This document shows, one piece after another, positions 7,925-57,117 of a stretch of DNA of 64,000 nucleotides. The notes under the pieces were generated by a model. That model saw only the letters and a program-made list of their open reading frames with translations, ran no database searches and was not told where the DNA came from. Each line of letters opens with the position of its first letter. Within the stretch, counting starts at the first letter, position 1. The position numbers were made by a program, and so were the translations under genes. The stretch is from positions 19,572-83,571 of the IMG/VR virus record IMGVR_UViG_3300023063_000001; one strand, given 5' to 3'. This DNA comes from a virus.

Positions 7925-8247
7925 TATACCTAGCCAGTCCCTACAGCTACAAAGCAGACAAAGAACTGATGCACACACGCTACCTTCAAGCTCTAGCTAA
8001 GGCAGCTGAGCTTACAAAAGAAGGATTGGCTGTGTTCTCGCCGATAGTTTCATCGCATCAGCTTTCCTTGTTTCACGATATGCCAACCACTTGGGATTTC
8101 TGGAGCAATATTGATTATAAATTTCTAGATGCCTCTAGTGAACTGTTTATACTTATGTTAGAATCCTGGGACAAGTCAGTAGGCGTAGCGGCTGAAATTA
8201 AGTATGCTGAACAGATTGGTATCCCTGTAACATTTATTTATCCTTAA
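7921..8247 (+). CDS. DUF1937 / nucleoside 2-deoxyribosyltransferase-fold protein
   Basis: IYLASPYS..VFSPI..W..SVGVAAEIKYA. Confidence 0.75.
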   Translation: MIYLASPYSYKADKELMHTRYLQALAKAAELTKEGLAVFSPIVSSHQLSLFHDMPTTWDFWSNIDYKFLDASSELFILMLESWDKSVGVAAEIKYAEQIGIPVTFIYP

Positions 8248-28030: not shown

Positions 28031-28081
28031 ATTCTCTCCTTATCTGGAGAGGGGCAATAAAGCCCCATCCCTCTTCTTTAT

Positions 28082-28615
28082 TTAGCTAATCCATTTGGCT
28101 GGAATAGTTACACCTAAGCTAGCAGCTTCGTCAACCAAAGCACCATCAACTTTACTGTTACCACCAAGAATATCTTCAAGCTTGTTAACACGTACCACCC
28201 ACTCACGGGTTTCCATTGTGTTACCATACATTGCATTTGGTTTAACAGCTACATAAGCTTGATAACCATAGTGTAGCGAACGGCCAGATGTGTCTTTAAC
28301 AGTAATAGAGAACAAGTTATCGCTTGACTTACCACGAATGTCACGAGCAAACAAAGCATCAAGAATATCATTGGTATCTGAAGTCATCTGTAGTGGGATG
28401 GTAATGTTAGCTTTATCCCAAACAGCATTATAGATACGAGTTGTATTGCCGTAAGCCCCAACTGATTCAGACCAAGCGTCTGAACGCTCGATTCTCACGA
28501 TCTCTGATTCGCTCACACCGTCAACAATATGTGAACGAGGGGCACCATTATTATCTTCCCAATCAAGAATTATATAAACTTGCGTGGGATCATAACTACT
28601 AAGCATACCACTCAT
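28082..28615 (-). CDS. Major tail tube protein (DUF3277-like)
   Basis: SYDP..LQMTS..VKDTSGRSL..REW; follows sheath, followed by a hairpin. Confidence 0.78.
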   Translation of the reverse strand: MSGMLSSYDPTQVYIILDWEDNNGAPRSHIVDGVSESEIVRIERSDAWSESVGAYGNTTRIYNAVWDKANITIPLQMTSDTNDILDALFARDIRGKSSDNLFSITVKDTSGRSLHYGYQAYVAVKPNAMYGNTMETREWVVRVNKLEDILGGNSKVDGALVDEAASLGVTIPAKWIS

Positions 28616-28642: not shown

Positions 28643-29665
28643 TTACACATGCACGGTTCCTTTTATAATTACTTTTTCGACGGCCCCTTGTAGGGTTGCA
28701 TCAAATAAGAAGTCACCGGCAATACGTTGCAGACGTTGGTTCTCCGGGATGTCACTCACTCTTGGGACCGTGATTGTGTAGGTACTATAAGCACCATTGG
28801 TCACACCAAGAGCTAGTACAGAACGCATCTGAGCTTCAACCAAAGCAAATCCTGCATCGGTGTACGGAACTTTAGGCTTGCGAACCAACATACCAAATAC
28901 TGACTCTTGCATACGGGCAATCGTCCAAAACACAATGATCTGTTGATCAATTTTTGTGCCATCTGCCATCATATTATGCCGAGTGATGTTTACCCCTGCA
29001 ATAGTGATATAGTAGGACATGTTCTTACTTTCTAGGTTAGTGCGAGCAGTCTTCGAAAGATTGTCTGCTGGGACACCTTCAAGAGTCTTAAATTCCCAAG
29101 TGTTAGCACCCGGAGTATAAGTCAACTGGCTGCCTACCCATGCAGCTTCTGGATAATATGTATCTGCTGCTGTGTGGAAAGTGGTGCTTGTTTGGTCATA
29201 ACCCAAGGCTTTAAGCTGGGCACCAATATCTGTTGTAGTCACTGCAAGGGCTGTAGCATCTTGGGTAGATGTGAAATATACTTTGTTAACCGTTGCAATA
29301 TAACCAGCCATGGCCAGAACATCAGCAGGAACGTGTGTACCAGCAACCAAAGCAAACCAAGTACTGTTTTCAGCATCTACGGCTGTCAAGGCTTGTAGCC
29401 AAGTTTCTGTAGTTGGTACTTTACGCCCAATCACTACAGTATTAGGAGATTGATCCTGACCAAAAATTGCTTCTGCCATTGTTAGAACAAGAGGAGCATT
29501 GAAGTCTTCAACAACCTCAGCGTAAGAGGAATAGGTACGAGTACGTGAATCAGTCCAATCCGTAAATTCGGCTAGAATTAGGGGGATCGTAAATGAAGCC
29601 GTGGTGATAGTTTCTGTCTGAGCACTGATGCTGACAGAAACTACATCATCTAGCATATTAGCCAT
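28643..29665 (-). CDS. Tail sheath protein (DUF3383-like), compact 340 aa
   Basis: TWEFKTLEGV, KVPYTDAG, LQGAV motifs; synteny. Confidence 0.88.
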   Translation of the reverse strand: MANMLDDVVSVSISAQTETITTASFTIPLILAEFTDWTDSRTRTYSSYAEVVEDFNAPLVLTMAEAIFGQDQSPNTVVIGRKVPTTETWLQALTAVDAENSTWFALVAGTHVPADVLAMAGYIATVNKVYFTSTQDATALAVTTTDIGAQLKALGYDQTSTTFHTAADTYYPEAAWVGSQLTYTPGANTWEFKTLEGVPADNLSKTARTNLESKNMSYYITIAGVNITRHNMMADGTKIDQQIIVFWTIARMQESVFGMLVRKPKVPYTDAGFALVEAQMRSVLALGVTNGAYSTYTITVPRVSDIPENQRLQRIAGDFLFDATLQGAVEKVIIKGTVHV

Positions 29666-31924: not shown

Positions 31925-32998
31925 TTAAGCGAGGTACAGACGTACTATGGCTTGTGGTCTAAGTACTGCGTTCAGCATGTTGGACTCAGACATGATTTCG
32001 ATCTTGTCCATCTTGTCGCCCATGTACTCAGCGTAGTACTGAGACTGACCAACAGTGTTAACTGAAGGGAAAGTCAGAGCAGGAGCGTAGTAGGTCTGGA
32101 ACATATCAGTCACACCCAATGGGAATGCATAAGCATCGCCAGCAGGAATGAAAGGCTGTACAGCACCGTTTTGGTCGGTGTAAGTACCACGATATTCAAC
32201 GAAGGTGATACCACCAAAGGTGAACACTTGATAACGAGCGTCAAGACCCATTGCACCAGTAGCCAGACGGTTAACCAAAGGATCTTGGTCACGGCGGAAG
32301 TACTTGTATACTTCGGTGATGTAAGGGTTGGTGATTAGAGCTTGGAACCAAGTTGGGGAACACAGAACAACAAAGTTTTCAACTACTTGACCATTCAACA
32401 GACCATCTTGTACAGCGGAGATGATTTGGTTGGTATAGGTCAGGGGATCGGTGTTAACGTTGGTGAGAGTGGTTGGAATCTCAGTACGGGTAACGCCAAA
32501 CTCGGTGTAGTAGTTGATGGTGTTGCCGTAGGTGGTGGCCATAGTACCACTTGGAGCATATACGCTACCTGAAGTGATAATCTGCATACGCGCTACTTCT
32601 GCAAGGTTGGCATAGCGCTGACGCAGGTTAGCCATCTTACGAAGACGTACAGTAGCTTGGGTTTCCAGTTCCAGACCTTGGGCAAAGTTAGTCCAAGAGA
32701 TGATACCTTGAAGGTCACGCGGGGTGATTTCAGTATCAAGTGGGAAGTGAGGAATCTTGAAAGGCATAACACCACGCTTTGAAGGCTTCAGAGCGGAGTT
32801 ACGTTCATCCCAGTTGCGGTCAACAGGCAAGCCATCAACTTCAGTGAGGGCACTAACCAAAACGGTGTCTTGGGTAACGCCTTGCTCATTGAACAGGCCC
32901 ATGGTGTTGAGAAGACCCCAGTGGTTTGGGATGTTCAGAAGTTGTTGTGTTAGTTCGGCAACCCGACCAGTGTTGTTGGGTAGAAAAGCAATAGCCAT
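31925..32998 (-). CDS. Major capsid protein (HK97 fold, lambda gpE-like)
   Basis: IPHFP, FGGITFVEYRG, AFPLG..YYAPA, SESN..RPQAIV; strong codon bias. Confidence 0.92.
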   Translation of the reverse strand: MAIAFLPNNTGRVAELTQQLLNIPNHWGLLNTMGLFNEQGVTQDTVLVSALTEVDGLPVDRNWDERNSALKPSKRGVMPFKIPHFPLDTEITPRDLQGIISWTNFAQGLELETQATVRLRKMANLRQRYANLAEVARMQIITSGSVYAPSGTMATTYGNTINYYTEFGVTRTEIPTTLTNVNTDPLTYTNQIISAVQDGLLNGQVVENFVVLCSPTWFQALITNPYITEVYKYFRRDQDPLVNRLATGAMGLDARYQVFTFGGITFVEYRGTYTDQNGAVQPFIPAGDAYAFPLGVTDMFQTYYAPALTFPSVNTVGQSQYYAEYMGDKMDKIEIMSESNMLNAVLRPQAIVRLYLA

Positions 32999-33463: not shown

Positions 33464-34855
33464 TTATTTAGTTTTTGTTTTAAATTGTTCAGCGATCAAC
33501 TTTGCGAGATGATCTTCCATTGCTGGTGTAACAGCAGTGTCTACAACAGTGTCAGCACCCATTTCTTTAAACAGAGATGAATCACCAATCACTTTATTGC
33601 TCATTTCATGGCTAGCTACAACAGCGTCCATCTGAGCATCTGACAAACCATCAAGAGAGGCGAGCAGGGTTTTAGCTGCTTCATCACCAAGGACGGCTGA
33701 AAGTTTAGCGGTGCGAGCTTCTACAATAACAACTTTAGCAGCTAGTTCAGCAGTTTCTTTTTCTGCTTTGAACTGAGCTACAAATTCATTTGCTTCAGCA
33801 AGTTTAGCTTGAAGATCTACAACACCAGAAAGGGCTAGTTGCATTTCTTGTTCTTTAGTTTGAAAAGCTAGCTGAAGTGCGGACAATTCCGACTTAGCGA
33901 GTTCTAGTTCGTTCATGTCGAAACTCTCCAGAGACACTGATGTGTCTACGTTCTTGGTCATTTTAAATAGTTTGTCTTTTAGCATTGAAGAATCATTTCC
34001 TTTATTGCTTTGGGCTGTATCTGCTAAGTATTCGTAAAAATCCTCGATGGACATTACCTTATCTGCTAGACCAAGCTTCAAAGCGTCTCCGGAGAGAAAC
34101 GTCTTTGCTTCTGTGGCTCTAACTGCTTCTACAGAAATGCTGCGATTCTCAGCAACAAACTCTGTAAAACTGTCGTAGAGAATATCTACTTTTGATTGAA
34201 TATCTTCTAAGAATGCAGGTTTGAAAGATCCGTCATTTGCAAATGGGGTCTTGGATGCACCTGCCGTAATAAAGGTACGTTCATAACCTTCTTTCTCAAG
34301 AGCTTTACTATCATTAATTAACTGAACAACTACACCAATACTGCCTATATCACTTTGAACATTAGTAATAATTTGATCAGAAATAGCTGTAAGAGCATAG
34401 GCGGCGCTGGCACTTAAACCATCTACATAGCTTAATATCGTGACATCGTTGGCTTGTGCATAAGCTTTGATATAGTTAGCTGCATCAAACAAACCGTAAG
34501 CTGAGCCTCCACCACTATCAACCATGAATGCAATAGTCTTTGCACCATTATCAACTAGATAAGTAAAGTCAGCTTTAAGGTTCTGATAGCTAGTACCACC
34601 ACAATCCATTCCCATCATTGTAACGGGTTTATCTGTAAGTGGGCCTTGGATGTCCATAACGGCTACACCAAGATCAGAGTTAAATGAATAGCGGTTTGTA
34701 ACTTTGTTTGAAGGGCTGTCTTCATCGTCATCTAGTTTAAAATCACTAGCTTCACGACTGTCTAGATAATCCAAGACTGTTTCAAAGGATTGAAGATGCA
34801 TCAAATGAGGAGTGTTAGACAGCTTCTCTTTAATACGTAAAAGTTGATGAGCCAT
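33464..34855 (-). CDS. Prohead protease (S49) fused to scaffold; probable internal scaffold start at ATG 33916
   Basis: DSGGG, ASAAY, GSIGVV, GLAD; C-terminal coiled coil; GGAGAG RBS 7 nt before in-frame ATG 33916. Confidence 0.9.
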   Translation of the reverse strand: MAHQLLRIKEKLSNTPHLMHLQSFETVLDYLDSREASDFKLDDDEDSPSNKVTNRYSFNSDLGVAVMDIQGPLTDKPVTMMGMDCGGTSYQNLKADFTYLVDNGAKTIAFMVDSGGGSAYGLFDAANYIKAYAQANDVTILSYVDGLSASAAYALTAISDQIITNVQSDIGSIGVVVQLINDSKALEKEGYERTFITAGASKTPFANDGSFKPAFLEDIQSKVDILYDSFTEFVAENRSISVEAVRATEAKTFLSGDALKLGLADKVMSIEDFYEYLADTAQSNKGNDSSMLKDKLFKMTKNVDTSVSLESFDMNELELAKSELSALQLAFQTKEQEMQLALSGVVDLQAKLAEANEFVAQFKAEKETAELAAKVVIVEARTAKLSAVLGDEAAKTLLASLDGLSDAQMDAVVASHEMSNKVIGDSSLFKEMGADTVVDTAVTPAMEDHLAKLIAEQFKTKTK

Positions 34856-36376
34856 TTAATTTTCCTTATTTGAAGTAGATGAGTCTCCAGAGCTACCCGT
34901 TGCACTACCCGTACCTGAGGGAAGACCAGCCGCCAACCCTTCACCACTGGAACTGTCTGCTGGACCTAGAAGCTCATTAAGATCATCCTGACTCATATCC
35001 TCATCCACACGATCTGGAAGACCAATAATCTCAGCAATGTAGTTAATGTTCTTAGGGGTAGGGGCTACAAGACCGACAGCTTTAGTTCGTTGCAAAGCGC
35101 TAGAGAGTGCGTCAATATCCGTGGCGTCCACTTCACCATAGCAAAGCTTAGGCATATCTACAGGATTCCAACCATTAAGCTGTGCAAGCTGTTTAATCAC
35201 ATCATTATTGAATACATCTTGAATTTCCATCAAGGCTGTTTCAACTCGTGTGGCTACAATGCTTGTCTTGTTATCAGCAAGGCTAAAAGAACCTGTATTG
35301 TTCTGACCCATCTTCAACACATCAGCAAAGAATGACATTAGAATTTCTGTTGAATACCTGTCAATGACAGCACCAACATCAAAGCTTTTAGCTCCCGTAA
35401 CACCAGCCAACTCAAAGTTGAACATCTTGTTACCAGACTCATCATAGATGGTTGGAAGAATCAAACCCTCTTGTTCTTCACGATGTAAATTACGCATCAC
35501 TTTCTTTAGGTATTCGTAGGTGGCTTTATCAGAGTCAGAAGCACCTTCCACCATATATTGAACAGGGATAGAAAGAACTGGAAGCCCTCTCATATCCTTG
35601 CTTATACCAACAGCTTCAGCTTCTTCTAACGCCTTCTTGAACTTCCACGATTCCCAACAATAGATAAGAGGACTTTCACCTGTTGGGCTATTCTTACGAG
35701 CGTTGGTTCTAAACAACATAAACTTTTCACGGGGGATAAGAACTCCAGGTGAAATCTGTGTTGATTGAACAAACTGTGTAGTTGTTGGGTTATCTATGCC
35801 TGTGTTATTTACTTGCCACTGGCGAACACCTGTTACATTACGATTGTTAGCATCCATTTCCCAACGAGCAATAGTTTCTTGACCACGACAATAAATACCT
35901 TTAAGACCAATCAACCCATCGTTGTAATAAGAGCCATTAATCTTTAATCTTTTTCTAAAAACCTTTTCACAGAGCGAAAATCCGTAAGTGTTAAAAGAAA
36001 TAATCTCTTTAATTGTTTGAAAGAAACTTGTATCTAAGTCTTCAAAAAATACTTCTTCTAGAAACTTCTTTTTAGCTTTCTGATCTGGTGTGGCATTGTG
36101 AGGAACATCAAAGCTCCACTTAGTCTTGCTAATCATTGTTTCAACAAGCTGAATAGCAGAACTTACTGTTGCATCTTTACGCATCTGTTTAAATGTGTAA
36201 ATGCATTGTGGCCATTGCAATTCTTGTCTGTAGCCATCTAGGATATTGTTTCCTAGTTCTACACCCGGTTGACCAGATTCAGTGAACTTGAGACGTGGGA
36301 TTGTAGAATCCGTTCCCGTTGTTAATGTCGGCAACTCTGTAGTTGCCCCCACAGGAGCCTTTTTTGTTGCTGCCAT
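34856..36376 (-). CDS. Portal protein
   Basis: QMRKDATV, YGFS..EKV, PTGESPL, GSFSLAD; follows TerL. Confidence 0.9.
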   Translation of the reverse strand: MAATKKAPVGATTELPTLTTGTDSTIPRLKFTESGQPGVELGNNILDGYRQELQWPQCIYTFKQMRKDATVSSAIQLVETMISKTKWSFDVPHNATPDQKAKKKFLEEVFFEDLDTSFFQTIKEIISFNTYGFSLCEKVFRKRLKINGSYYNDGLIGLKGIYCRGQETIARWEMDANNRNVTGVRQWQVNNTGIDNPTTTQFVQSTQISPGVLIPREKFMLFRTNARKNSPTGESPLIYCWESWKFKKALEEAEAVGISKDMRGLPVLSIPVQYMVEGASDSDKATYEYLKKVMRNLHREEQEGLILPTIYDESGNKMFNFELAGVTGAKSFDVGAVIDRYSTEILMSFFADVLKMGQNNTGSFSLADNKTSIVATRVETALMEIQDVFNNDVIKQLAQLNGWNPVDMPKLCYGEVDATDIDALSSALQRTKAVGLVAPTPKNINYIAEIIGLPDRVDEDMSQDDLNELLGPADSSSGEGLAAGLPSGTGSATGSSGDSSTSNKEN

Positions 36377-36388
36377 TTTGGCTCCTAA

Positions 36389-37975
36389 TTAACGGATGTT
36401 GTTGAGAGGGTTACTGGTTCTTTCGAAACCAAAAGATTGCATGCCGGAGAGGAAGTTTGGTACAGTGCGTTTGGATGCTACAGCTTCGAAGGCATCCGAG
36501 CACGCATCACATAAATCATCGTGACCTGCCTCGCCACTACGACGGGTTCCATCAAACACCTCCACTTGATTGTAAAAAAAGGATAAATCATTGGTTACCC
36601 CGTTTTCAAAATCAGTAGCACAATTCTTTAGAATCTTCATACCACCGTTCATTACAATAGATGCAAAAGGCTTAAACCTATCAGCTTTTTTACCTTGTGC
36701 CCTTAACTGTCTGCACATAAAACCGGCTGATGAAATATCCCTAGATAAGACACTGTTTGTAAACTTAGCCCCAGGGCCTGGGTCCAAAGGGATAATTATA
36801 TCTGTCCTTTTCCCATCTTGATAAGCAGCTTCAAGGATAAAAGGTAGCCACTCTCCCGGAAGAATACGAGTCTGCTTGATGTCATGAATAAAATAAGTAC
36901 CATCTTTGAGGCGACTCATTTTCACTGAAACTGTATAGTCCGGAGAACTGTTCTTTTCACTTTTCTTGGAAAAGGCAAAATCATAAGCGCGGACTGTGCA
37001 ATCAATGTCTGTCCAAGCGGGTTCTTGACTTTCTTCAATGAACCACTCGCGGCGCACCATGCCTGAACCTTCTTCGCGGGCCTCCCACGAGCCATAAAGA
37101 AGAATTTCTTTTTGTACGCGTGGCAATCCTTCAAGGAATGCTATATAATTATCTTCAATGTATGGGTTGTCATAAACAGATGCTGAAATCCAAGCAAACG
37201 AAAGAGGTTTAATTTGCTTCTTATCCGTATCCGGCAACAAGTCGCCAAAGGAATCTCTTCGTCCATGTTTCTCAAACATCTGATCCCGAGATTCAGCCCA
37301 AATCATGTTGTTGCCGTCACGGATAAACCAGCGCACAACACCTTGTTTAGCTGGGTCAGGCCTGCCAAAGAACTCACTTCCCTCTGGATATAAGTACCAC
37401 CCAACCCACTTCTTCACCCAGCTATCAGGCGAGGGGTTCATGGTAGCCCTCATCACCGGTTTCATTTCTGCTTTTGTACGAAGGCGGGACAAAATATAAA
37501 GAAATTGACTTTCTTCAAACTGACAAAGTTCGTCTAGGACCGCTGAACTAATTTGTGCCCCTTGAAAATTGCCCGTATCATCAACACTTTCAAAGTGCGT
37601 AAAGGACACTTCAGCTTTCTTTTCTAAACCCTGCACCGGTCCAAAGTTAATCTTCATGTCCTTGATTCGAACACGAGCATTTTCATCAAAATCTTTATAT
37701 AGGCTTTTAGCTTCGTCCCAAATTGCTCCGGGTTTAGTAAGCATGGGGGTTGTTCGGCGAATCACAATACCCTTATAATTAGGTAAGTGAATATATTTCA
37801 TGTGATGAATAAGCGCGGCAAAAGTCTTCCCTCCGCCAGCTTGCCCCCCATAGAAGATTATATCAACTTCTTCACCTTCTTCTGTCGCATACTTACTACG
37901 TTTTCCTGTACCATCTCTTAGATTTAAGAAGAGGGCTTGAGGTCGGCTTGCGGGGGCAATAATTTGTCCTGACAT
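36389..37975 (-). CDS. terL: Terminase large subunit
   Basis: Walker A GGQAGGGKT, Walker B VLDE, TMNP, RAYDFA, HDDLCDA. Confidence 0.95.
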   Translation of the reverse strand: MSGQIIAPASRPQALFLNLRDGTGKRSKYATEEGEEVDIIFYGGQAGGGKTFAALIHHMKYIHLPNYKGIVIRRTTPMLTKPGAIWDEAKSLYKDFDENARVRIKDMKINFGPVQGLEKKAEVSFTHFESVDDTGNFQGAQISSAVLDELCQFEESQFLYILSRLRTKAEMKPVMRATMNPSPDSWVKKWVGWYLYPEGSEFFGRPDPAKQGVVRWFIRDGNNMIWAESRDQMFEKHGRRDSFGDLLPDTDKKQIKPLSFAWISASVYDNPYIEDNYIAFLEGLPRVQKEILLYGSWEAREEGSGMVRREWFIEESQEPAWTDIDCTVRAYDFAFSKKSEKNSSPDYTVSVKMSRLKDGTYFIHDIKQTRILPGEWLPFILEAAYQDGKRTDIIIPLDPGPGAKFTNSVLSRDISSAGFMCRQLRAQGKKADRFKPFASIVMNGGMKILKNCATDFENGVTNDLSFFYNQVEVFDGTRRSGEAGHDDLCDACSDAFEAVASKRTVPNFLSGMQSFGFERTSNPLNNIR

Positions 37976-38529
37976 TCAAACTCCTCAAGACTAAACCTTT
38001 TAAAAACAGACTCTATACAAGTTGAAGAAACATTATATTTAGCTGCAAAATCTTTTTGTAAAACACCTTCAACCCTTTTCTTGCAATTCGTAAGAATATC
38101 TATAACAGCTTCCTTGTCTAATTTAGCTAACTTACTTTCTAATTTAGAGGCTGTTACTTTAGTCAAACCCGTTGCAAGAGCATGTGATTTATTTTCAGCG
38201 TAGGTATTCCACTCAAGATTCTCTACTTGGTTGTTAGTCTTATTTCCATCAATATGGTTTATTGTAATCTTAGTTTCAGGATTAGGTATAAAAGATTTAG
38301 CAACTAGCCGATGGATCATACAAGTTTCCCTAACACCCTCTAAAGAATAAAAGTGTAGGGTTGGGTAGCCTGATGTACCAACTGAAAATTTAAGAATCTT
38401 TTCTTTATATGGGTAAACACGCCCATCTTTATAAATTATAGTTTTAGCTAAAGCTTTAACCCTACCTAAAGAACTAACTTGATATAAACCTTCATACCCT
38501 TGTATATCTTTCCAAACTTCTTCATTCAT
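37924..38529 (-). CDS. Free-standing HNH homing endonuclease (NUMOD4 + HNH_3)
   Basis: EVWKDIQGYEGLYQVSSLGRV; IHRLVA..INHIDGNKTNNQVENLEW; overlaps terL start by 52 nt. Confidence 0.9.
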   Translation of the reverse strand: MNEEVWKDIQGYEGLYQVSSLGRVKALAKTIIYKDGRVYPYKEKILKFSVGTSGYPTLHFYSLEGVRETCMIHRLVAKSFIPNPETKITINHIDGNKTNNQVENLEWNTYAENKSHALATGLTKVTASKLESKLAKLDKEAVIDILTNCKKRVEGVLQKDFAAKYNVSSTCIESVFKRFSLEEFECQDKLLPPQADLKPSS

Positions 38530-38559
38530 GTAATTTAGTCTCTTAATAAAAAGAAAACT

Positions 38560-38660
38560 GTGTGCCTCCCGGCAAGACATGAGTATAGGAGCGTTTCACA
38601 ACGAGTCCTGAATAGGTGAGGGCGTCATCCCGACGAGCCTCGGTGTTGCTTTTATACAAC
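38560..38660 (-). ncRNA. Structured leader with two related hairpins
   Basis: CGTC-GGGAT-GACG and AGGA..CGTT-GTGA-AACG..TCCT. Confidence 0.4.
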
Positions 38661-48915: not shown

Positions 48916-49083
48916 TTAAAACCAAAAAGTACGATTGCCACTAACAAGATTCAAAATCAAGCCAACAATAAATACTACTAGAAGAATTTTCAATAGCAAA
49001 CCAACAGTACCGGCGATTACGAACACACCGAACAGTGGTAGTACAAGAGCTAGAATCAATAGTACAAGAATTAGATTAACCAT
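48916..49083 (-). CDS. Small two-TM protein (55 aa), DUF1328/YtjA-like
   Basis: GAGGA RBS; IAGTVGLLLKILLVVFIVGLILNLVSG. Confidence 0.6.
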   Translation of the reverse strand: MVNLILVLLILALVLPLFGVFVIAGTVGLLLKILLVVFIVGLILNLVSGNRTFWF

Positions 49084-49095
49084 TTTTATTTCCTC

Positions 49096-49515
49096 TTATT
49101 CGTTTTCTTCATACCCAACTTCACCGAGTTTAGGGGTGTAGTTAAGATTCAATCTAGTGACAGGAACAAGCTTTAGGATTTCCGCAGCGTCTTCTTCCTC
49201 TTCATCGCGTTTGCCTTCAAGACGTAGTTTAGTGAGAGTGGACTCTTCCTGAGAAGCAGCACGGTCTAAGGAAATGATACTAGTTATCACCCACTGACTT
49301 GTTGAAAGTTGTTTAGCATCAACATCCCTACCTTCAACACTATCTTTAATGTTCTCTAGAGCTTTAGGCTCAATTTCACGCAGCTTGGCCGCTGTATCAC
49401 GCAGCTTAGACTTCTGTATGCGAATTTTACTATTTGATTTAGTGTTACGGTTACTACGCTCCCCATCAAACTGTGTTGAGCGTTGTGCTGGACTAGGTGT
49501 CTTTTTGTTAGCCAT
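49096..49515 (-). CDS. Putative terminase small subunit
   Basis: Basic N-terminus (STQF..RSN), helical core, acidic tail; first gene of the packaging-direction cluster. Confidence 0.4.
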   Translation of the reverse strand: MANKKTPSPAQRSTQFDGERSNRNTKSNSKIRIQKSKLRDTAAKLREIEPKALENIKDSVEGRDVDAKQLSTSQWVITSIISLDRAASQEESTLTKLRLEGKRDEEEEDAAEILKLVPVTRLNLNYTPKLGEVGYEENE

Positions 49516-49536
49516 TTTAATTACCTATAATTGTTC

Positions 49537-49755
49537 ATATTTTTAAGGAAGCTCGTAGACAATACGTCTTACAATATTCAATAGAAGGAGAATCCTTAAA
49601 AATATAACTTCCAAAAGAGGAGGGCAATCAGAAGTTATAGGAGGCAAACACGCAGGAGGGAACGTGCGCCTTTAACACAAGACTAGAGGAGAAGGGAGGA
49701 TAGTCTTGTGGATGAAGACAGAGCTTTATGGAGGATTTACTTCTTAGCGCTCATG
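49537..49755 (-). ncRNA. Multi-hairpin RNA with CCUCC-containing loops
   Basis: Four to five stems with anti-SD loops; G.U extensions favour the - strand. Confidence 0.6.
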
Positions 49756-49764
49756 CCGGTGAAT

Positions 49765-50139
49765 CTATTGCTTTGGTCCGACGTATTCTAAAGTAAACAT
49801 ACGATTTCCCATCTCATCAGTAATGGCAGGCAAAATCATTCCTTCACTCTCACCATTATTAATTTTTCTAAGCTGTTCTTTTAGAAGTTTGTAAATAGCC
49901 AGATCTTTTTCTTTTGCTGATTCTTGCATATATTGAATAGGTACATGAAGAACATATGCACCATTACAGTCTTTAAAATCAGTAACAGCTACAGCTTCTT
50001 GTTCTTCATATAACTTAAGTTTTTCATAAAGCTCAATAGCCATACTACGATACATAGGGCCATCATTATGCTGACGAGGGCCTGCGTAGTGTGCAGAAAG
50101 ATGGGCAGCAACAATAGAATGTTTTTCAAAATCAGACAT
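49765..50139 (-). CDS. Stand-alone portal-fragment paralogue (124 aa)
   Basis: About 37/77 identities by eye to the portal segment at 35403-35626; GAGGA RBS. Confidence 0.85.
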   Translation of the reverse strand: MSDFEKHSIVAAHLSAHYAGPRQHNDGPMYRSMAIELYEKLKLYEEQEAVAVTDFKDCNGAYVLHVPIQYMQESAKEKDLAIYKLLKEQLRKINNGESEGMILPAITDEMGNRMFTLEYVGPKQ

Positions 50140-50164
50140 TTTTATTCCTCAAAATTAAAATAAG

Positions 50165-50375
50165 TAAAACAAGAAATCCGGTTTTAGACACACTCCGGCA
50201 AGTGGTTTACAGAGGAAGGCGTACGCATCTATTAGCTAACGAATTTAATCGCTACATCTCTAGAGGAGAACCTTTGCAGGTTCAGCCACTTCCTGATAGA
50301 GAGTGTATTCCTCTATCCGTCTACAGGGTGGAGGGGCCTAATACACAACCAGTCTCCAAATCGTCTTACGCTGTA
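50165..50375 (-). ncRNA. Structured RNA downstream of tRNA-Thr
   Basis: GATAGAG/CTCTATC, GAACCT-GCAA-AGGTTC (GNRA), AGGAAG/CTTCCT closing helix. Confidence 0.45.
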
Positions 50376-50379
50376 AAGA

Positions 50380-50455
50380 TGGTGCCGTCACTAAGATTTG
50401 AACTCAGGACCTACGCATTACAAGTGCGTTGCTCTACCTACTGAGCTATAACGGC
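50380..50455 (-). tRNA. tRNA-Thr(UGU)
   Basis: Cloverleaf, anticodon arm ACGCA-CTTGTAA-TGCGT, GTTCAAA, encoded CCA. Confidence 0.95.
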
Positions 50456-50460
50456 ATATT

Positions 50461-50546
50461 TGGTGGGTGTTGATGGATTCGAACCACCGATGTATCAATG
50501 TACGGATTTACAGTCCGCTGTCTTCGCCACTAGACTAAAAACACCC
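50461..50546 (-). tRNA. tRNA-Tyr(GUA)
   Basis: GCGGA-CTGTAAA-TCCGT, long variable arm, GGTTCGAATCC, CCA. Confidence 0.93.
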
Positions 50547-50551
50547 AAGGA

Positions 50552-50628
50552 TGGCTGGTAGTAGTGGACTCGAACCACTCATCTGTAGATTAACAGTCTA
50601 CGACCCACGCCCGGTGAGATCACTACCA
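50552..50628 (-). tRNA. tRNA-Asn(GUU) with atypical D arm
   Basis: GTAGA-CTGTTAA-TCTAC, GGTTCGAGTCC, acceptor TGGTAGT/ACTACCA, GCCA end. Confidence 0.85.
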
Positions 50629-50722
50629 ATAATTTGAATTAAATACAATACATTTGTTTCTTATTCTATTGATATGCATTCCATACAATACATAAAAGCT
50701 ACTTTTATTTCGCAGTCATACT

Positions 50723-50752
50723 ATTATAGACACATTATTCTAATACTGTCAA
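50723..50752 (-). promoter_or_regulatory. Consensus sigma70 promoter for the tRNA cluster
   Basis: TTGACA-18 nt-TATAAT. Confidence 0.85.
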
Positions 50753-50764
50753 CCATTATTTCAA

Positions 50765-50974
50765 TTAGTTATCATAATCATCTGAATAGATTGTCCAGAA
50801 CTGTGTTTTACCCCTTTCAGTAAGAGATTCAAATGCCCTTTCCCACACAAAGCTTCTACAGCCTTCTTCCAATATCAATACATCTGGAAACTGCTGGTCT
50901 TCTATCAACACTTTCAAACTTTTAAGATCACCTTCAAAAAGAGGTAATACAGAAGTATCTTCGTCCTCTTTCAT
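50765..50974 (-). CDS. Small acidic hypothetical protein
   Basis: AAGGA RBS; TTGACA upstream at 51031-51036. Confidence 0.6.
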   Translation of the reverse strand: MKEDEDTSVLPLFEGDLKSLKVLIEDQQFPDVLILEEGCRSFVWERAFESLTERGKTQFWTIYSDDYDN

Positions 50975-51059
50975 GAGGTTTTTCCTTATTTGGTTTCAAT
51001 GCACATATAATTACATATACATCTATCAGATGTCAAGTGTTAATAGAAAATAATTATAA

Positions 51060-51317
51060 CTAACCAATATTACCCCACCTAGACCTCTTTAAGGCACATG
51101 CGTAATTCCCTTTACTGTCTACAACCAACTCACCAAACGCTTGTGTACAGTTTGTCCAAGCTTTGAGGAAATCCAATTGTTTCTTTTGTTCTTGTATTTG
51201 TGTACGCCACATGTCTAAATCAGCTTGTGTAATTCTAGGCTTTAAAGGCTCTTTTACTATGTAGACAGCGGCACCAATACCAATTACAGCAATAGCTAAT
51301 ATTGTAAATACATTCAT
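51060..51317 (-). CDS. Membrane-anchored small protein
   Basis: N-terminal TM, coiled coil, two Cys. Confidence 0.6.
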   Translation of the reverse strand: MNVFTILAIAVIGIGAAVYIVKEPLKPRITQADLDMWRTQIQEQKKQLDFLKAWTNCTQAFGELVVDSKGNYACALKRSRWGNIG

Positions 51318-51319
51318 AA

Positions 51320-51535
51320 TTATTTCCTAATGTTGTTTACACGATTAATATAATCCTTAAGACCATCTTGTATCTGTTTGTCAAGCATGTTTGAACAGTC
51401 AGAGCGAAGCTTAAGGTTTTCATCTTTTAGCTGACTATACGCCACCCAATGCTCTTGATTGGGATTGTCTTGTCCCCATTTGTAGAACATCACCATGCCA
51501 GCGATGATTAGGGCTGTGTAGATAATTGGTTTCAT
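51320..51535 (-). CDS. Membrane-anchored small protein
   Basis: AGGAG RBS, N-terminal TM. Confidence 0.6.
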   Translation of the reverse strand: MKPIIYTALIIAGMVMFYKWGQDNPNQEHWVAYSQLKDENLKLRSDCSNMLDKQIQDGLKDYINRVNNIRK

Positions 51536-51559
51536 GTGGTTCTCCTATTGTGTGGTTTG

Positions 51560-51588
51560 ATTCTAGCTTAGGAGAGTGCGGGTGTCAA
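51560..51588 (-). promoter_or_regulatory. Sigma70 promoter
   Basis: TTGACA-17 nt-TAGAAT. Confidence 0.8.
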
Positions 51589-51679
51589 GGGTTTATTTTT
51601 AACTCTTGATTGTTAATTTGTTTTCTGATCTTTTGTGCTTTAATCACATCTTCTATGTCTAAATTCATATCTTATCTCC

Positions 51680-52045
51680 TGTGTTATTACTTATCCTTAG
51701 TATCTTATATACTCATTCTGATAGATCTGTGGTAGGAAGGATAGAGAAGTCCCAAGGAATCGCCATACAGAACAAGTCTGCCTAAGACGAAACCTTGGCT
51801 CTATCCTTCACTAAATCAAGCTCATTCTGATGAGTCTGAGGTTAGGCTGCTAGGTTAGCAGAATGGACGGTTCTCATTCCATGCTTTACAGCATGTAGTC
51901 TCTGACGCTATAAGAACCTACGAGATCAGCTTGGGCGAGTCAGATAACCTCTTCATACCCTTTAAGACACAGCCGGTGAGTGAATGCTTTCGCTGACATA
52001 TCTCTCTGTGTCCGTACACCTAATGTCTTTACAGTTAGAAGGTGA
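51680..52045 (-). ncRNA. About 365-nt structured non-coding transcript or leader
   Basis: Own promoter; GACACAG/CTGTGTC, GC-GAAA-GC, CATGCT-GTAA-AGCATG, GAAGGATAGAG/CTCTATCCTTC, CCAAGG/CCTTGG. Confidence 0.5.
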
Positions 52046-52051
52046 AGATCA

Positions 52052-52080
52052 AGTATGGCAGATTAAATTTAATAAGTCAA
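52052..52080 (-). promoter_or_regulatory. Sigma70 promoter (divergent pair, leftward)
   Basis: TTGACT-17 nt-CATACT. Confidence 0.7.
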
Positions 52081-52081
52081 C

Positions 52082-52115
52082 CAAAAATAAATCTAAATCA
52101 AAAATAAATCTAAAT
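52082..52115. repeat. Exact 17-bp tandem duplication between divergent promoters
   Basis: CAAAAATAAATCTAAAT x2. Confidence 0.9.
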
Positions 52116-52121
52116 AACTGC

Positions 52122-52151
52122 TTGCATACCCTACCCACATACTGCTATCAT
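52122..52151 (+). promoter_or_regulatory. Sigma70 promoter (divergent pair, rightward)
   Basis: TTGCAT-18 nt-TATCAT with TG extension. Confidence 0.65.
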
Positions 52152-52190
52152 TCCCTCACTGAATCAAAACACACAAACAGGAGATACACC

Positions 52191-52376
52191 ATGTCAGGCT
52201 TTGCTCACTTCATCTGCTTCATCCTTACCTGTATCACTGGAGGCTTTTTCCTTCCGCTGTGGGTGTTGTTCGCCTTGATCGCAGGTAGCAGCAATCGAAA
52301 GAAAGAGATTCGTAAACGTGACCAAGAACTCAGCTTACTTCGGGAATTGGTGAAAAACACCAAGGGGAATAAATGA
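52191..52376 (+). CDS. Small membrane protein
   Basis: AGGAG RBS before ATG 52191; H..L..ITGG..L.W pattern. Confidence 0.65.
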   Translation: MSGFAHFICFILTCITGGFFLPLWVLFALIAGSSNRKKEIRKRDQELSLLRELVKNTKGNK

Positions 52377-52660
52377 CATACCTAGCCTACTGGATTATCC
52401 TATCCATATGCACCTATTTACTGACCAAAAACACCCTAGAAAAGCTTTTGAAGCCTATAGGTGGTGTGGTAGCATGGTTGGACAAAGGAGCACGTTTAGA
52501 CGGTGATAAATCCCTTGAATTAGTGCCTGATCAATTTAAGATTGCAGTGTGTTGGACATACTTTCTTATCTTGTCTTTGTTTCTATGGCCTGTTGTGCTT
52601 TCGTTCACAGTCTATTACACTTGGTTTCCAGAAAGATTTATACGGAGGGTTGAAGAATGA
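52373..52660 (+). CDS. Two-TM hypothetical protein
   Basis: ATGA overlap; hydrophobic helices. Confidence 0.6.
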   Translation: MTYLAYWIILSICTYLLTKNTLEKLLKPIGGVVAWLDKGARLDGDKSLELVPDQFKIAVCWTYFLILSLFLWPVVLSFTVYYTWFPERFIRRVEE

Positions 52661-54067
52661 GTGATCAAATGGATCAAGCCATAATCCGAATGCCAATACT
52701 CTTGGCAATGGAGAATAATTTATCTAAGATACAGTTTTACAACCGAGCGCAAGCTATTTTGACTGAGCGTGATGAACAAAGAGAAACTATTGAGTTGCTT
52801 CGTTACACCCTAGAACGTGCTCGTAACAAACTCTCAGAAGAGAGGTGTGATCGTATGGCAGATGATATTGACAAGGTGTTGGAAAAGCTATGAATATAGG
52901 GAGAACAGTTACTTTTGAAAATGATTCTATAAATATCAATGGATTTGTAGATGGTGGGAAAGTGATTGTTCTTTCTAAACACAGAAAAGACAAGAAGTTT
53001 ATTATTGAATACTTGAAACCTTTTCCTGAAAATATTACAATAGCCAAGAAGTATTTAGAAGCTTACAACAAAGTTTTCATGTTCTCAGAGGATTGGGAGA
53101 GCTACAATGAGTAAAATTATTCAACTACCGGGAGCACCCACCCTACAAGGGGAAGCTGTCCAATCCATTGTCTACATGCTTGAACAGCTATTGGATCAAG
53201 CCAGAGATGGAAAGATACGTTCATTAGCTGTAGCCTTTGTGGATGATAAGGCTGATGTTAAAACCAATTGGGAGAATGAAGAGAATTTCTTTAAATTGAT
53301 GGGTGCTGTGGCATACCTCAGTCATCGTATGTACAAGGAGGCTAAATGATTAAACTCTCTTTGTTTATGCTTGATCCTGTAAAAGCTCATGCACTATACG
53401 TTAAAGAACGTGAGACAATGGAGTATGAGATGTTTGAGCCTTATGTAAAAGAAATAGCTCGTTTGACAAAGCTTTATGAGAAGGCTACAAAGAAGAGGAA
53501 TAAATTAGATAATGAAGTCAAACAACTGAATAACAAATTGAAGGAGACTAAATGAAACACTTAACTTACGCTTATGCTGCATGGTTTGCACAAGATTTAA
53601 TGGATGCTGTTATTGCCCTTGATTCATTTAAAGACAATAAGAATAATTCTCCTTTTACATGGGAATTGAAACGTTGGAGCTATACGGATTATTCTGAACA
53701 TAGATTCTACAGGAAAACTATCCTGATTGAAGAAGAAGGGAAACAACCTATCCTAAAAGAGTGGTATCACAGAGAAGGGTTGGAATCAATCATTGCTGAA
53801 TTGATTTATGATAATGAGGAGATTTGAATGAAAAAGTCTTTAGCTGATTTGGCGGTTGGATTAAGAGGCAAAACTTTTGATGCTATTTGGAATCCTTATA
53901 AAAATGAACCGCATTTAGGTATTTCTAATTTATGGTATTTCACTATTGAAAGAAACAGAGACAGAGAGCACACGTTCTTTCTGAACATCCCGTTTGAAGA
54001 TGGTAGCTCTGTGCAGTGGAAAATAGATAGCATGACATTTAATAACACTTGGCAGAGGATTTCTTAA
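52657..54067 (+). other. Run of six tightly coupled small hypothetical genes (52657, 52890, 53107, 53346, 53552, 53828)
   Basis: Mostly overlapping stop/start junctions and GGAG-type RBSs. Confidence 0.7.
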
Positions 54068-54466
54068 TTGGATACAACAGAAGATTTCCAAACGCTACAA
54101 ACACAAGTAAGCGAGCTATCAGATATAGCTGAAGCTATTAGAACAGCTTTAGGTAATGTCACAGAAACAACAGATGTTACGTCAGCAGAACAAACGCTTA
54201 CAAATGTAATATCTACATTACAATCTTTTGTGACAACAAACTTAAATGCTATTGGAGGGCAAGATGTAGTGGAGGATTTTATTGCTGAATTGAAAGTACT
54301 GCTGGATAAATATACAGCTTCTATTGCTATTACAGATAGTGAAGGAGGGTATGGTGTTGGTTACGGAGAAGGTGGCACACCTAGTATTACGTTTACAGCT
54401 TCTCTTGATGGGGCTACAGGGAGTAAGACATTTAATGTGAGTAGTTTGGTGGGGAATGATTTGTGA
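54068..54466 (+). CDS. Acidic Thr-rich hypothetical protein
   Basis: GAGGA RBS, TTG start. Confidence 0.6.
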   Translation: MDTTEDFQTLQTQVSELSDIAEAIRTALGNVTETTDVTSAEQTLTNVISTLQSFVTTNLNAIGGQDVVEDFIAELKVLLDKYTASIAITDSEGGYGVGYGEGGTPSITFTASLDGATGSKTFNVSSLVGNDL

Positions 54467-54828
54467 ATATAGATTGCAGTTTACTGCCGAATCCCTACGA
54501 GATTAACATTTGGAATACTAGGCAACAGCTTACAAAAGATATGGTGACAGAGTGCCTCAAGCGTGGTTTAGTTAAACGCTACCCAATCTTTGATTATGAG
54601 GATCACGAGGACGAGTTGTTACATGCTCAAAGAGTTTGCCACTTCATTATGGATAAGTGGAGTGATCCAGTTGATGCGGATGTACAGTTTACACCAGAAG
54701 GCGAGCCTTATATTTGGAATATTGATGGTTGCCACCGCGTCGCTGCTGCTTTGTACATGGAATGGGAAACAATCACTTGTCTTTATAATGAAGTAGTAGA
54801 GCAATATTTAAGGGAGAGAGACTTATGA
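54463..54828 (+). CDS. ParB/Srx-like domain protein
   Basis: DPVD..IDGCHRVAAA. Confidence 0.7.
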   Translation: MNIDCSLLPNPYEINIWNTRQQLTKDMVTECLKRGLVKRYPIFDYEDHEDELLHAQRVCHFIMDKWSDPVDADVQFTPEGEPYIWNIDGCHRVAAALYMEWETITCLYNEVVEQYLRERDL

Positions 54829-55036
54829 GCGAAGATGTTATGGCGTACAGCACTGTTGTTGGTGAGCTTGTCAAGATGGTGCGTGAAGAGATTCCTCAAG
54901 TGTTTGTTAAGTGGGAAGATTACTTAGCTCTGAAAAAGAAAGCAGATGAGATGGAATTTGTTTTAGAAGAATTGTATAAATAAGATTGTAAATTTAAAGG
55001 AAGTGTGTCATATTGATCTTGTTGTACTTTTATTAA

Positions 55037-55882
55037 TTGGTAGCAAGTGAGGTGTACATGGGAAGTCGCGAAAGAGCATTTGTAGTACAAGTTGACGGAC
55101 AAGATGTTGCCGTTCCTCGTAAGCGTGTTCGTAAAGACAAGGTTGGTAAACCTGCTGTCAATCACAAGTATGATGAAGAAAAAGAATTCAACTCAATGCA
55201 CTTCAAGCCAATTGGTGATGCCCAAATACTAGGCGCTCAGTATTTGCAAGAGGGTAGGAAAATTGTAGCACTGCAAGGTCCAGCAGGTGGTGGTAAGAGT
55301 ATTCTTGCTGCTTGGCACGCTGCAAACTTGTTGAAAACTAAATCCATCAGTAAACTATTTCTTGTTCGGCCTTATGAATCTTGCGGACGTACAATAGGTG
55401 CAGTTCCAGGCACGGAAAACGAAAAACTGGCTGTGATATTCACTAGTATTCTTGAACATCTTGCAAAGTTTCTTGGACGTACGCAATTATCCTATCTTCT
55501 TGAAAAGAAAGTAATAGAATTCAAAAGTGTTGAATGGATGCGTGGATATAGTTTTGAAGATGGTTGTTTTGTCTTGTGTGAGGAGTCACAAGGGTTTGAT
55601 ACAGAGCTTATGCAGATGCTTACCACCCGTGTCGGTGATGGTGCTCAGCTTTGTATGACAGGTGACTGGCGGCAAAAAGACATTCGTAAAGAAACAGGTC
55701 TTCGTTATCTGGATGAGTTGGTAACAGCAGTTAATGGAAATCCCCCACCATTCTTGGACGCAGAAGATATTAGGGAAATTCGCGATAACATTGGTTTTGT
55801 GAACTTTACGTTTGAAGACAGCGGGCGTCGTAGTAAGCTAACTAAGGCACTTGTTAAAATGTTTTACTACGAGAAGGGGTAA
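55037..55882 (+). CDS. phoH: PhoH-like ATPase (start may be ATG 55058)
   Basis: GPAGGGKS, RP..GAVPG..EK, MRGYSF, EESQ, TRVG, GD.RQKD. Confidence 0.92.
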   Translation: MVASEVYMGSRERAFVVQVDGQDVAVPRKRVRKDKVGKPAVNHKYDEEKEFNSMHFKPIGDAQILGAQYLQEGRKIVALQGPAGGGKSILAAWHAANLLKTKSISKLFLVRPYESCGRTIGAVPGTENEKLAVIFTSILEHLAKFLGRTQLSYLLEKKVIEFKSVEWMRGYSFEDGCFVLCEESQGFDTELMQMLTTRVGDGAQLCMTGDWRQKDIRKETGLRYLDELVTAVNGNPPPFLDAEDIREIRDNIGFVNFTFEDSGRRSKLTKALVKMFYYEKG

Positions 55883-55885
55883 GTA

Positions 55886-56641
55886 ATGAGTAAAGAAGAT
55901 ATGATTTTCCCGATGATTCAAGATCAATGCCCCGTAATGCATTCCACAATTACAACAAATGTGTTTGATATTATTCTAGATGATAATATTCGTGAGCCCG
56001 CCTACTACCGAGATGCTTTTCAAGTGTTTCGTCAGGCACAACGAGGAGATCGAATCAATTTAATCCTGAATAACTCAGGTGGCCGTCTTGATAGTGCAGT
56101 ATGTTTTGTAAACTTAATGAAAGAAACTGACGCAGAAGTTGTTGCAATCTTGGAAGGCGAGACACATTCAGCCGCATCAATCATAGCACTGAATGCCCAC
56201 GGTATTGAAGTAAAGCCATATGCATCAATGATGATTCATCACGCAAGTTTTGGTTCTGGAGGAACTGTTCAGAATGTAATGGATCATGTGAATTTTACAA
56301 GCAAGCAAACAGAACGTTTGATTCGGGAAACGTATCAATTTTTTCTAACGGAGGCCGAGCTAGACGAAGTGATTCGTAATCGCGAAATCTGGTTGACGGA
56401 CGAGGAGATTGGAGAACGTCTAGATACTATGTTTGAGGCCCGTAAAGAACAAGGCTGTGGTGTAGAGGGTTGTAGTTGCTCGGAGATTACAGAAGAGCTT
56501 GAAGAGGGTGATGGATTTGATCTTGATATGATGATTGAAGAAAAAGTTCAAAAGGCCCTTGAAGTCTACGACAAGAAACAGAAAACTCTTGCAGCCAAAG
56601 CAGCCAAAAAGAAACCTGCGGTGAAATCAGATGAATCCTGA
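55886..56641 (+). CDS. ClpP-like serine protease
   Basis: NNSGG, HSAAS (Ser), MMIHH (His), EIWL. Confidence 0.88.
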   Translation: MSKEDMIFPMIQDQCPVMHSTITTNVFDIILDDNIREPAYYRDAFQVFRQAQRGDRINLILNNSGGRLDSAVCFVNLMKETDAEVVAILEGETHSAASIIALNAHGIEVKPYASMMIHHASFGSGGTVQNVMDHVNFTSKQTERLIRETYQFFLTEAELDEVIRNREIWLTDEEIGERLDTMFEARKEQGCGVEGCSCSEITEELEEGDGFDLDMMIEEKVQKALEVYDKKQKTLAAKAAKKKPAVKSDES

Positions 56642-56846
56642 AGAGTATCTAAGTAGTGTACTTTTAGAGATTATTAAGGAGAATAAAATTCCACTCACTG
56701 AGAGAGGTCTTGCTTTTCTACAGAAAGAAGTGACTAATCGGTTAATCGATAAAGGTTATGAGATAAATATTCAACCTGTCTCGGAACTATCTGGTGAAGA
56801 TCGCAGACAGAGGGCAACACCTAGGATTGAAATTATCCTTAAATAA
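56631..56846 (+). CDS. Stand-alone tail-sheath C-terminal fragment paralogue (71 aa)
   Basis: KIPLTERG..Y.I...VS..S..DR.QR vs sheath KVPYTDAG..YTITVPRVS..QRLQR. Confidence 0.65.
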   Translation: MNPEEYLSSVLLEIIKENKIPLTERGLAFLQKEVTNRLIDKGYEINIQPVSELSGEDRRQRATPRIEIILK

Positions 56847-56907
56847 CCCTTGACCTGAATACGTGCCCTCCTATAAACTGAGGGCACACAAACTAAAGGA
56901 GATACAA

Positions 56908-57117
56908 ATGAACAGTAAAGCATTGTTAGAAATTAAAGAGATGTTCGATAAATACAATATTTCTATTCAAATAGTTTATAACAATAAATTATCCGTAGGG
57001 AGATGTGAACCAGAGCTTTGTATGTATTTTAAAGATGAAAGTGGCTTAGGTTTAGAACTAGATCATTTTTGGGAAGACAAGATTAAAGCTTATAACTTAA
57101 TTCCATTTGCTGTCTAA
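56908..57117 (+). CDS. Hypothetical protein
   Basis: AAGGAG RBS before ATG 56908; TTGACC promoter-like element at 56850. Confidence 0.6.
   Translation: MNSKALLEIKEMFDKYNISIQIVYNNKLSVGRCEPELCMYFKDESGLGLELDHFWEDKIKAYNLIPFAV

Follow-up and report, generated by a model that had tools for sequence, protein, structure and literature searches.

Two small genes of an uncultured soil myovirus related to a portal clip and, remotely, to a tail-sheath domain

Does a phage that encodes free-standing pieces of its own virion proteins carry them as one coordinated set of mimics, or as separate genes with separate histories? The question is raised by a 64,000-nucleotide stretch of IMG/VR virus record IMGVR_UViG_3300023063_000001, referred to here as the window (bases 19572-83571 of the 83,571-bp record, which has direct terminal repeats and is rated complete). 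The source phage is an uncultured soil myovirus from a leaf-litter metagenome and has only distant kinship to cultured phages, with 40-44% identity between its portal and those of the Pseudomonas phages phiPsa374, PAO1_Ab03, and PAK_P1. Two small genes of the window, termed the mini-portal and the mini-sheath, are considered (Table 1). The initial annotation had described them as members of one repertoire of truncated virion-protein mimics, located outside the morphogenesis operon in regions with host sigma-70-type promoters. Its view that both are partial homologues of virion proteins holds, as does its view that each keeps a subunit-contact module, the clip of the portal in one case and the C-terminal core of the sheath in the other. 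However, the two do not form one system. They are unrelated, separately inherited genes that share one genome.

The mini-portal and the portal clip

Residues 42-121 of the mini-portal align with residues 248-325 of the portal encoded by the same genome, with 38 of 80 positions identical (48%; E 6e-22). The match recurs on the whole 83.6-kb genome, in an all-against-all BLASTP comparison, and with a hidden Markov model (HMM) of the mini-portal family (E 5e-19). All-against-all comparisons cover the 767 open reading frames (ORFs) of at least 30 aa in the whole genome, and by BLASTP this is the sole pair that joins a small ORF to a virion protein.

The monomer model of the mini-portal consists of helices 8-19 and 27-52, a strand (63-69), a further helix (77-93), and a hairpin (99-107/113-120). 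The position of the clip is taken from the P23-45 portal, where the clip helix and loop lie at residues 263-275 according to the structural report (PMC7234808). Window portal residues 206-309 match residues 185-281 of the P23-45/G20c portal chain, and the P23-45 clip helix and loop fall on approximately residues 289-303 of the window portal, which correspond to mini-portal helix 77-93. This mapping points to a fragment that comprises the end of the stem helix and the entire clip, stopping short of the returning stem helix. The mini-portal family profile (A1) also matches residues 230-293 of the P7-1 portal chain (E 3.6e-7).

The C-terminal ~65 residues of the mini-portal are thus homologous to the clip of Mu-type portals (PF06074/phrog_113), for which the nearest solved structure is gp67 of the Pakpunavirus P7-1 (PDB 9ZBS/11BP). 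The order of strand, helix, and β-hairpin is the same, and the predicted lateral pairing is of strand to hairpin. Unlike the portals, which have ~500 aa, the mini-portal has no wing, crown, or second stem helix and cannot form a DNA channel. Its N-terminal part varies within the family and in part bears no relation to portals. It matches no Pfam family at E values up to 0.1 and does not correspond to a full-length portal with wing, stem, clip, and crown.

A search of 5.8 billion proteins assigns 27 other clusters of 111-128 aa to the mini-portal family (28 of 29 candidates passed, self included). The alignment has 27 invariant columns, all from G60 on. For the N-terminal ~55 residues there are at least two versions unrelated to each other (MSxFE.HPIVAAH... 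and MSKVTVTKNGPIVS...), and their distribution is out of step with the tree of the clip part, suggesting domain swapping. In the clip-segment tree, the 28 mini-portals are split from seven portals by a single branch (support 96/94), consistent with one common origin of the mini-portals, although the segments have only ~65 residues and deeper placement is unsure. The only PHROG that matches the mini-portal is phrog_12381 (PHROGs v4, 91 positions, function unknown), which matches 26 of the 28 mini-portals (best E 3.4e-5). It also matches the clip segments of the window portal (E 0.012) and of the portal of a related locus, L004 (E 4.9e-5), and thereby both places, mini-portal and portal, in the window's own genome. 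The matches are weak, and phrog_12381 may group small clip-like proteins that catalogued phages encode.

Selection on the mini-portal was assessed at three distinct loci besides the window: L004 (on the same contig as L005), L006, and L007. Between the window and L004, whole-protein identity is 65% for the mini-portal, 44% for the portal, and 37% for the large terminase (TerL). For the clip part of the mini-portal, the same comparison gives 72% amino acid identity, with 0.167 nonsynonymous differences per nonsynonymous site (pN) and 0.686 synonymous differences per synonymous site (pS), against 48% identity (pN 0.343, pS 0.706) for the same segment of the portal. Between L006 and L007, the clip part is 100% identical (pN 0.000, pS 0.465). 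The ratio of nonsynonymous to synonymous substitution rates (dN/dS) of the mini-portal is near 0.1 or below. The clip part of the mini-portal is under strong purifying selection and evolves more slowly than the clip of the portal itself. Because synonymous sites are saturated, recent horizontal spread is rejected as the cause of this conservation. Since the constraint on the mini-portal exceeds that on the portal segment from which it derives, the mini-portal does something that matters to these phages.

The lateral inter-subunit β-sheet of portal rings is formed by the strand-to-hairpin pairing of neighboring clips, and the large terminase and the head-to-tail adaptor also dock on the clip. 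The mini-portal is predicted to self-associate by a clip-like strand pairing of this kind, in which strand 60-68 of one copy contacts hairpin 98-119 of the next. A model of four copies built with the A1 alignment reaches an interaction prediction score from aligned errors (ipSAE) of 0.52 (0.54, 0.52, and 0.40 in separate runs), while the best of three controls reaches 0.00. The runs have at least 82% of their contacts in common, and the predicted local distance difference test (pLDDT) score of the partners is at least 75. The ipSAE mark applied is one that 20 of 30 solved same-chain pairs attain, compared with 1 of 23 single chains.

The mini-sheath and the sheath handshake domain

The relation of the mini-sheath to the sheath is more distant. 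BLASTP finds nothing between the mini-sheath and the sheath of its own genome, tblastn finds nothing in 50,697 phage records, and a word-index protein search finds no relative of the 71-aa protein. An exhaustive HMMER search, in contrast, recovers eight full-length small homologues of 69-77 aa. Three long proteins also matched in this search, P0031 (1651 aa), P0035 (a designed repeat with a His tag), and P0037 (an ankyrin repeat protein), but these are repeat proteins and their matches were discarded as spurious.

Profile comparisons connect this family to the sheath. The mini-sheath itself matches phrog_205 ("tail sheath") at E 2.4e-4, as do eight of the nine family members (best E 8.8e-8), and six of the nine match phrog_9590, which is also matched by the real sheath. 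Among the 767 ORFs, the sheath of the same genome ranks second with the family HMM (E 7.9e-4, sheath residues 251-314). By hhalign, the family aligns with 26 sheaths at 89.3% probability (E 2.1e-6), with mini-sheath residues 7-69 corresponding to sheath residues 252-321. Identity is ~21%, and the motifs K-[IV]-P-x-T and R-x-x-R are common to both.

On this basis, the mini-sheath is a remote homologue of a segment of the C-terminal inner (handshake) domain of the sheath. Its model contains two helices (3-17 and 24-41) and two strands (43-48 and 65-70), which would derive from the C-terminal part of the handshake domain. The sheath of the window is of the DUF3383 type (PF11863/phrog_205), for which the nearest solved structure is P7-1 gp76 (PDB 9ZDK). 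Unlike sheaths of this type, which have 340-430 aa, the mini-sheath lacks the N- and C-terminal arms and the remainder of the inner domain. Its score against PF11863 (E 0.082; 12.2 bits) falls below the cut-off of 34.9 bits, and it does not correspond to a full-length sheath with both arms. The terminal extensions link neighboring sheath subunits in P7-1, according to the available part of the structural report (PMC12697256).

As for the full-length protein, many relatives of the window sheath have 427-430 aa and cover only 74-82% of it. The window sheath seems to be without an inserted outer domain.

The mini-sheath has a conserved position. The order PhoH, ClpP-like protease, mini-sheath is kept in the window and in three related loci, L008 (genome G001), L017 (G003), and L018 (G004). 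An additional 255-aa gene, not found in the window, lies between PhoH and the ClpP-like gene in L017 (1105-1872) and L018 (4383-5150). The ClpP-like and mini-sheath genes overlap in the window and in L008.

Separate inheritance and genomic setting

Both genes occur together in the window. Genome G001 (100% complete) has the mini-sheath and a homologous portal but no mini-portal. G004 (98% complete) also has the mini-sheath, and no mini-portal was found in it by a search that is insensitive, as the A1 profile missed even the portal at E 1. L004 is a fragment (20% complete) that takes in the ClpP-like neighborhood; it has the mini-portal but no mini-sheath by its ClpP-like gene. The two genes are therefore not one co-inherited repertoire. 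The wider repertoire proposed in the initial annotation also found no third member: the all-against-all and profile comparisons that it called for recover the mini-portal by BLASTP and the mini-sheath by HMM but no further fragment paralogue, and none of the 56 other small ORFs outside the structural block matches a structural family in PHROGs (for the first set, among the best 25 of 37 families).

The structural genes occupy the minus strand from ~51535 down to ~13676, and a block of small genes that includes PhoH, the ClpP-like protease, and dCMP deaminase begins on the plus strand at 51984 (Table 1). The proposed location outside the morphogenesis operon is thus correct for the mini-sheath but not for the mini-portal, which lies on the strand of the structural block, at its head.

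Table 1. Positions in the window of the two small genes, the virion-protein segments related to them, and other features
Feature	Position	Strand	Remarks
Mini-portal gene, 124 aa	49765-50139	-	variable helical N-terminal part (1-~55) and portal-clip-like part (~60-124)
Portal segment corresponding to mini-portal	35402-35635	-	portal residues 248-325; end of stem helix and clip
Mini-sheath gene, 71 aa	56631-56846	+	overlaps end of ClpP-like gene by 11 nt; GGTGA 6 nt before ATG
Sheath segment aligned with mini-sheath	28703-28912	-	residues 252-321 of 340; last 19 sheath residues outside alignment
Conserved leader, ~65 nt	50140-50204	-	directly upstream of mini-portal start; single occurrence in window
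tRNA-Asn, tRNA-Tyr, tRNA-Thr cluster	50380-50625	-	between promoter-like site and mini-portal
TTGACA-18-TATAAT sigma-70-like site	50723-50752	-	sole 12/12 site in 64-kb window; 583 nt upstream of mini-portal
Conserved 139-aa gene	49096-49515	-	function unknown
PhoH	55037-55882	+	precedes ClpP-like gene
ClpP-like serine-protease gene	55886-56641	+	upstream neighbor of mini-sheath in 4/4 phage contexts
Large terminase (TerL)	36389-37975	-	
Portal, 506 aa	34856-36376	-	Portal_Mu PF06074 / phrog_113, E 2.3e-22 and 1.2e-81
S49 protease	33464-34855	-	
Major capsid protein	31925-32998	-	
Tail sheath, DUF3383-type, 340 aa	28643-29665	-	
Baseplate wedge gene	20149-21618	-	

Of the sigma-70-type promoters expected near both genes, only a candidate upstream of the mini-portal is found. 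A perfect 12/12 site lies upstream of the gene in the window, and L006 has one 598 nt upstream of its own mini-portal. However, such sites are not enriched as a class in the window (27, against 25.3 +/- 4.6 in shuffled sequences). Four sites match at 11 or more of the 12 positions, where shuffling gives a mean of 2.7, and there is no strong sigma-70-like site near the mini-sheath. DNA of the region 49000-57000 is present in two leaf-litter metagenome runs, one of which is probably the source, and no RNA run is listed for it.

The mini-portal has a GAGGA ribosome-binding site 8 nt before its ATG. The leader that directly precedes it is also found in L004 (~8015-8078), L006 (~640-698), and L007 (~895-953). 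It consists of a CACTT-R-CCGGAGTG box, a variable loop, and then AACCGGATTTCTTGTTTTA..ATTTTAAT. The 3′ 45 nt of the leader are almost identical in the window and these three loci, despite the saturation of synonymous sites in the coding sequence, and the leader could be a regulatory or processing element. A CCUCC-rich sequence is present at 49537-49755, the interval that separates the mini-portal from the 139-aa gene.

The 139-aa gene directly follows the mini-portal in the window, L006, and L007, lies a few genes further on in L004, and is also present in G001, which is without a mini-portal. Its product has no match to Pfam or NCBIfam families and none by tblastn in phages. The best sequence match in the PDB has an E value of 0.57, and the protein Atlas returns only unnamed viral clusters, with DUF5681 (score 0.87) as a lead only.

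Other paralogues are present in the genome. Three tandem paralogues of a KPP10_Orf10-like tail-tube protein (28082-28615, 27530-28030, and 27060-27533) occupy 27060-28615 on the minus strand. A 188-aa gene of the plus-strand block (579-1145) and a 218-aa gene directly upstream of the large terminase (37924-38580, minus strand) form a paralogous pair (E 6e-11), with 29% identity across 195 aligned aa. The longer of the two proteins matches no NCBIfam family.

None of the 339 records of GenBank phages matched by the mini-portal shows a second portal-like place. A separate tblastn search with the portal gives 1219 places in 1217 GenBank phage records, and the two cultured phages with two portal-like places could have split portal genes or further fragments.

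Possible roles of the two proteins

The homology, module identity, conservation, selection, synteny, and independent distribution described above frame a conditional account of binding partners, timing, and biological purpose. In the preferred account, which is given about an even chance of being right, each gene supplies a free-standing subunit-contact module of a polymerizing virion protein, and both proteins would act as interface mimics through the kept contact surface, in the manner of dominant-negative microproteins. Both have the hallmarks of such a protein, being small, homologous to an interaction module, and devoid of the other domains. Eukaryotic MicroProteins are likewise small and have a single domain, which stems from the interaction domain of a larger protein, and those such as Id and LITTLE ZIPPER act through non-productive complexes. 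However, MicroProteins are known for transcription factors and not for virion proteins or phages.

The mini-portal would self-assemble by clip-type strand-to-hairpin pairing and would then hold or compete for a ligand of the clip, which could be a phage component (the terminase, the adaptor, or portal not yet assembled) or a clip-reading host protein. In P7-1, the head-to-tail adaptor wraps the clip and stem, competing with TerL, according to the structural report (PMC12697256). A phage ligand is favored by the hairpin-tip motif D-x-x-G-N-K/R-M-F, which is common to the mini-portals and the portals of the window and L004. The G001 portal has D-S-A-G-K-K-M-F, and the motif is absent from the portals of PAK_P1 and phiPsa374 (Pakpunavirus and Otagovirus portals).

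The mini-sheath would serve as a cap or holder, binding either the free arms of sheath subunits that are not yet assembled or a partner that binds the sheath, possibly in concert with the ClpP-like protease to which it is coupled. Small partners of the sheath handshake are known: in the accessible parts of the respective reports, adaptor-2 of P7-1 (gp87) joins the handshake β-sheet (PMC12697256), and the tail terminators of Milano and R-pyocin also augment it (PMC10491603). The contact proposed for the mini-sheath is of the same kind, joining the inter-subunit sheet. Yet adaptor-2 and the terminators are products of tail or baseplate-module genes and not sheath fragments, whereas the mini-sheath gene lies beside the ClpP-like protease in a non-structural block.

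Several observations weigh against this account of interface mimicry. Genomic contexts are few, with three distinct mini-portal loci and three mini-sheath loci besides the window. Confidence in the monomer models is only moderate (pLDDT 66.7 for the mini-portal and 70.4 for the mini-sheath). Foldseek against the PDB returns nothing significant for the mini-portal (best E 0.07), nor does the VIA fold search, in which the best match is MinE (Z 5.8) and the other matches are helical. For the mini-sheath, the top Foldseek matches are mostly entries that contain sheaths, but at E values of 0.058 or worse. VIA places the whole mini-sheath model on the C-terminal 80-100 residues of sheath chains, a match that is weak and non-exclusive: the best Z is 4.3, with residues 379-481 of the XM1 chain, and unrelated folds reach Z 3.6. 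The self-association run of the mini-portal, with four copies and its own alignment, differs from the calibration of the tool, and its score may stem from solved portal rings that the model has memorized. Divergence of the mini-sheath is about as rapid as that of the sheath (34-45% versus 42-44% identity), and its constraint is therefore unremarkable. Finally, conservation of the mini-portal clip far exceeds that of TerL or the portal in the same phages, which favors a host target. Such conservation is hard to reconcile with a phage partner that evolves fast and would be more in keeping with a host protein that is itself conserved.

A host target of this kind is central to a different and rather unlikely explanation, in which the fragments are anti-defense decoys that occupy host sensors of the portal and sheath without triggering them, allowing the later full-length proteins to escape notice. 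Portals are established triggers of Avs4 and Avs11 (PMC13581612) and of RAZR (PMC13017515), as far as the available text of these reports extends. The conserved host target of a decoy would explain why the clip is so much more conserved than any phage partner examined, and the 12/12 promoter-like site would allow expression of the mini-portal by the host polymerase. However, literature searches found no sheath-sensing system, and the Avs targets given in the available text include tail tube, terminator, and others but not the sheath (PMC13581612). According to the accessible part of the RAZR report, this sensor requires a large portal ring, and escape mutations lie elsewhere in the T7 portal (PMC13017515). 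Nor do literature searches find a report of a structural-protein fragment that acts as a decoy. A mimic of a trigger could equally activate the sensor instead of blocking it, and a joint decoy function sits poorly with two genes that do not travel together. As decoys, the mini genes would resemble anti-Avs proteins in countering portal and terminase sensors, but the anti-Avs phage protein ORF55, a DNA ligase, acts downstream on DNA damage and is no trigger mimic, and the available text of the preprint that describes it mentions no portal- or sheath-like anti-defense protein (EVADES; 10.1101/2025.06.06.658234). PADLOC returns no match for four proteins, as expected for phage genes.

Less probable still is that the two proteins are ordinary minor virion or assembly parts, the mini-portal as an accessory of the portal vertex or neck and the mini-sheath as an initiator- or terminator-like protein that completes the handshake at one end of the tail. 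The position of the mini-portal at the head of the structural-gene strand, adjoining the conserved 139-aa gene, would fit such a role, and small handshake-completing proteins such as those of P7-1, Milano, and R-pyocin described above are virion parts. The genes for sheath initiators (gp25/TssE-like) lie in the baseplate module. The mini-sheath gene, in contrast, is found on the opposite strand, among the PhoH, ClpP-like, and dCMP-deaminase genes and far from the tail module. As for the mini-portal, it is missing from G001, which has a homologous portal, and from all 339 matched GenBank records. Near-complete relatives with homologous portals can thus be without it, and it is therefore dispensable for this virion architecture.

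Non-functional duplication debris, an outcome that the initial annotation had itself raised, or chance ORFs would be the least probable explanation by far: spurious sheath similarity might seem plausible for a 71-aa ORF that is beyond the reach of BLAST and of the word-index search, but its eight small homologues, conserved synteny, and four concordant profile results argue otherwise, and for the mini-portal, intact in 28 clusters, debris is contradicted by the evidence of selection.

Phages commonly carry paralogues of structural genes. Conserved stand-alone fragments reduced to the subunit-contact module are a different matter, as literature searches found no description of them, and the mini-portal is a well-supported family of small genes for which no earlier description was found. 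A broader proposal, which is doubtful at present, is that phages make free copies of their own virion assembly interfaces, a ring or arc of clips and a cap for the sheath handshake, before the full-length proteins appear. Such copies would pre-empt the readers of these interfaces, be they portal sensors (Avs4, Avs11, RAZR-like) or premature interactions of terminase, adaptor, and sheath, and, if this is true, structural genes would be the source of a new class of viral "interface decoys." Should the mini-portal titrate a host portal sensor, the terminase, or the adaptor, this would represent a new viral way to control packaging or to hide a conserved immune trigger, and the ~65 clip residues of the mini-portal would offer a compact reagent with which to probe the binders of the portal clip. 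For sheath assembly, the parallel question is posed by the mini-sheath and its coupling to a ClpP-like protease.

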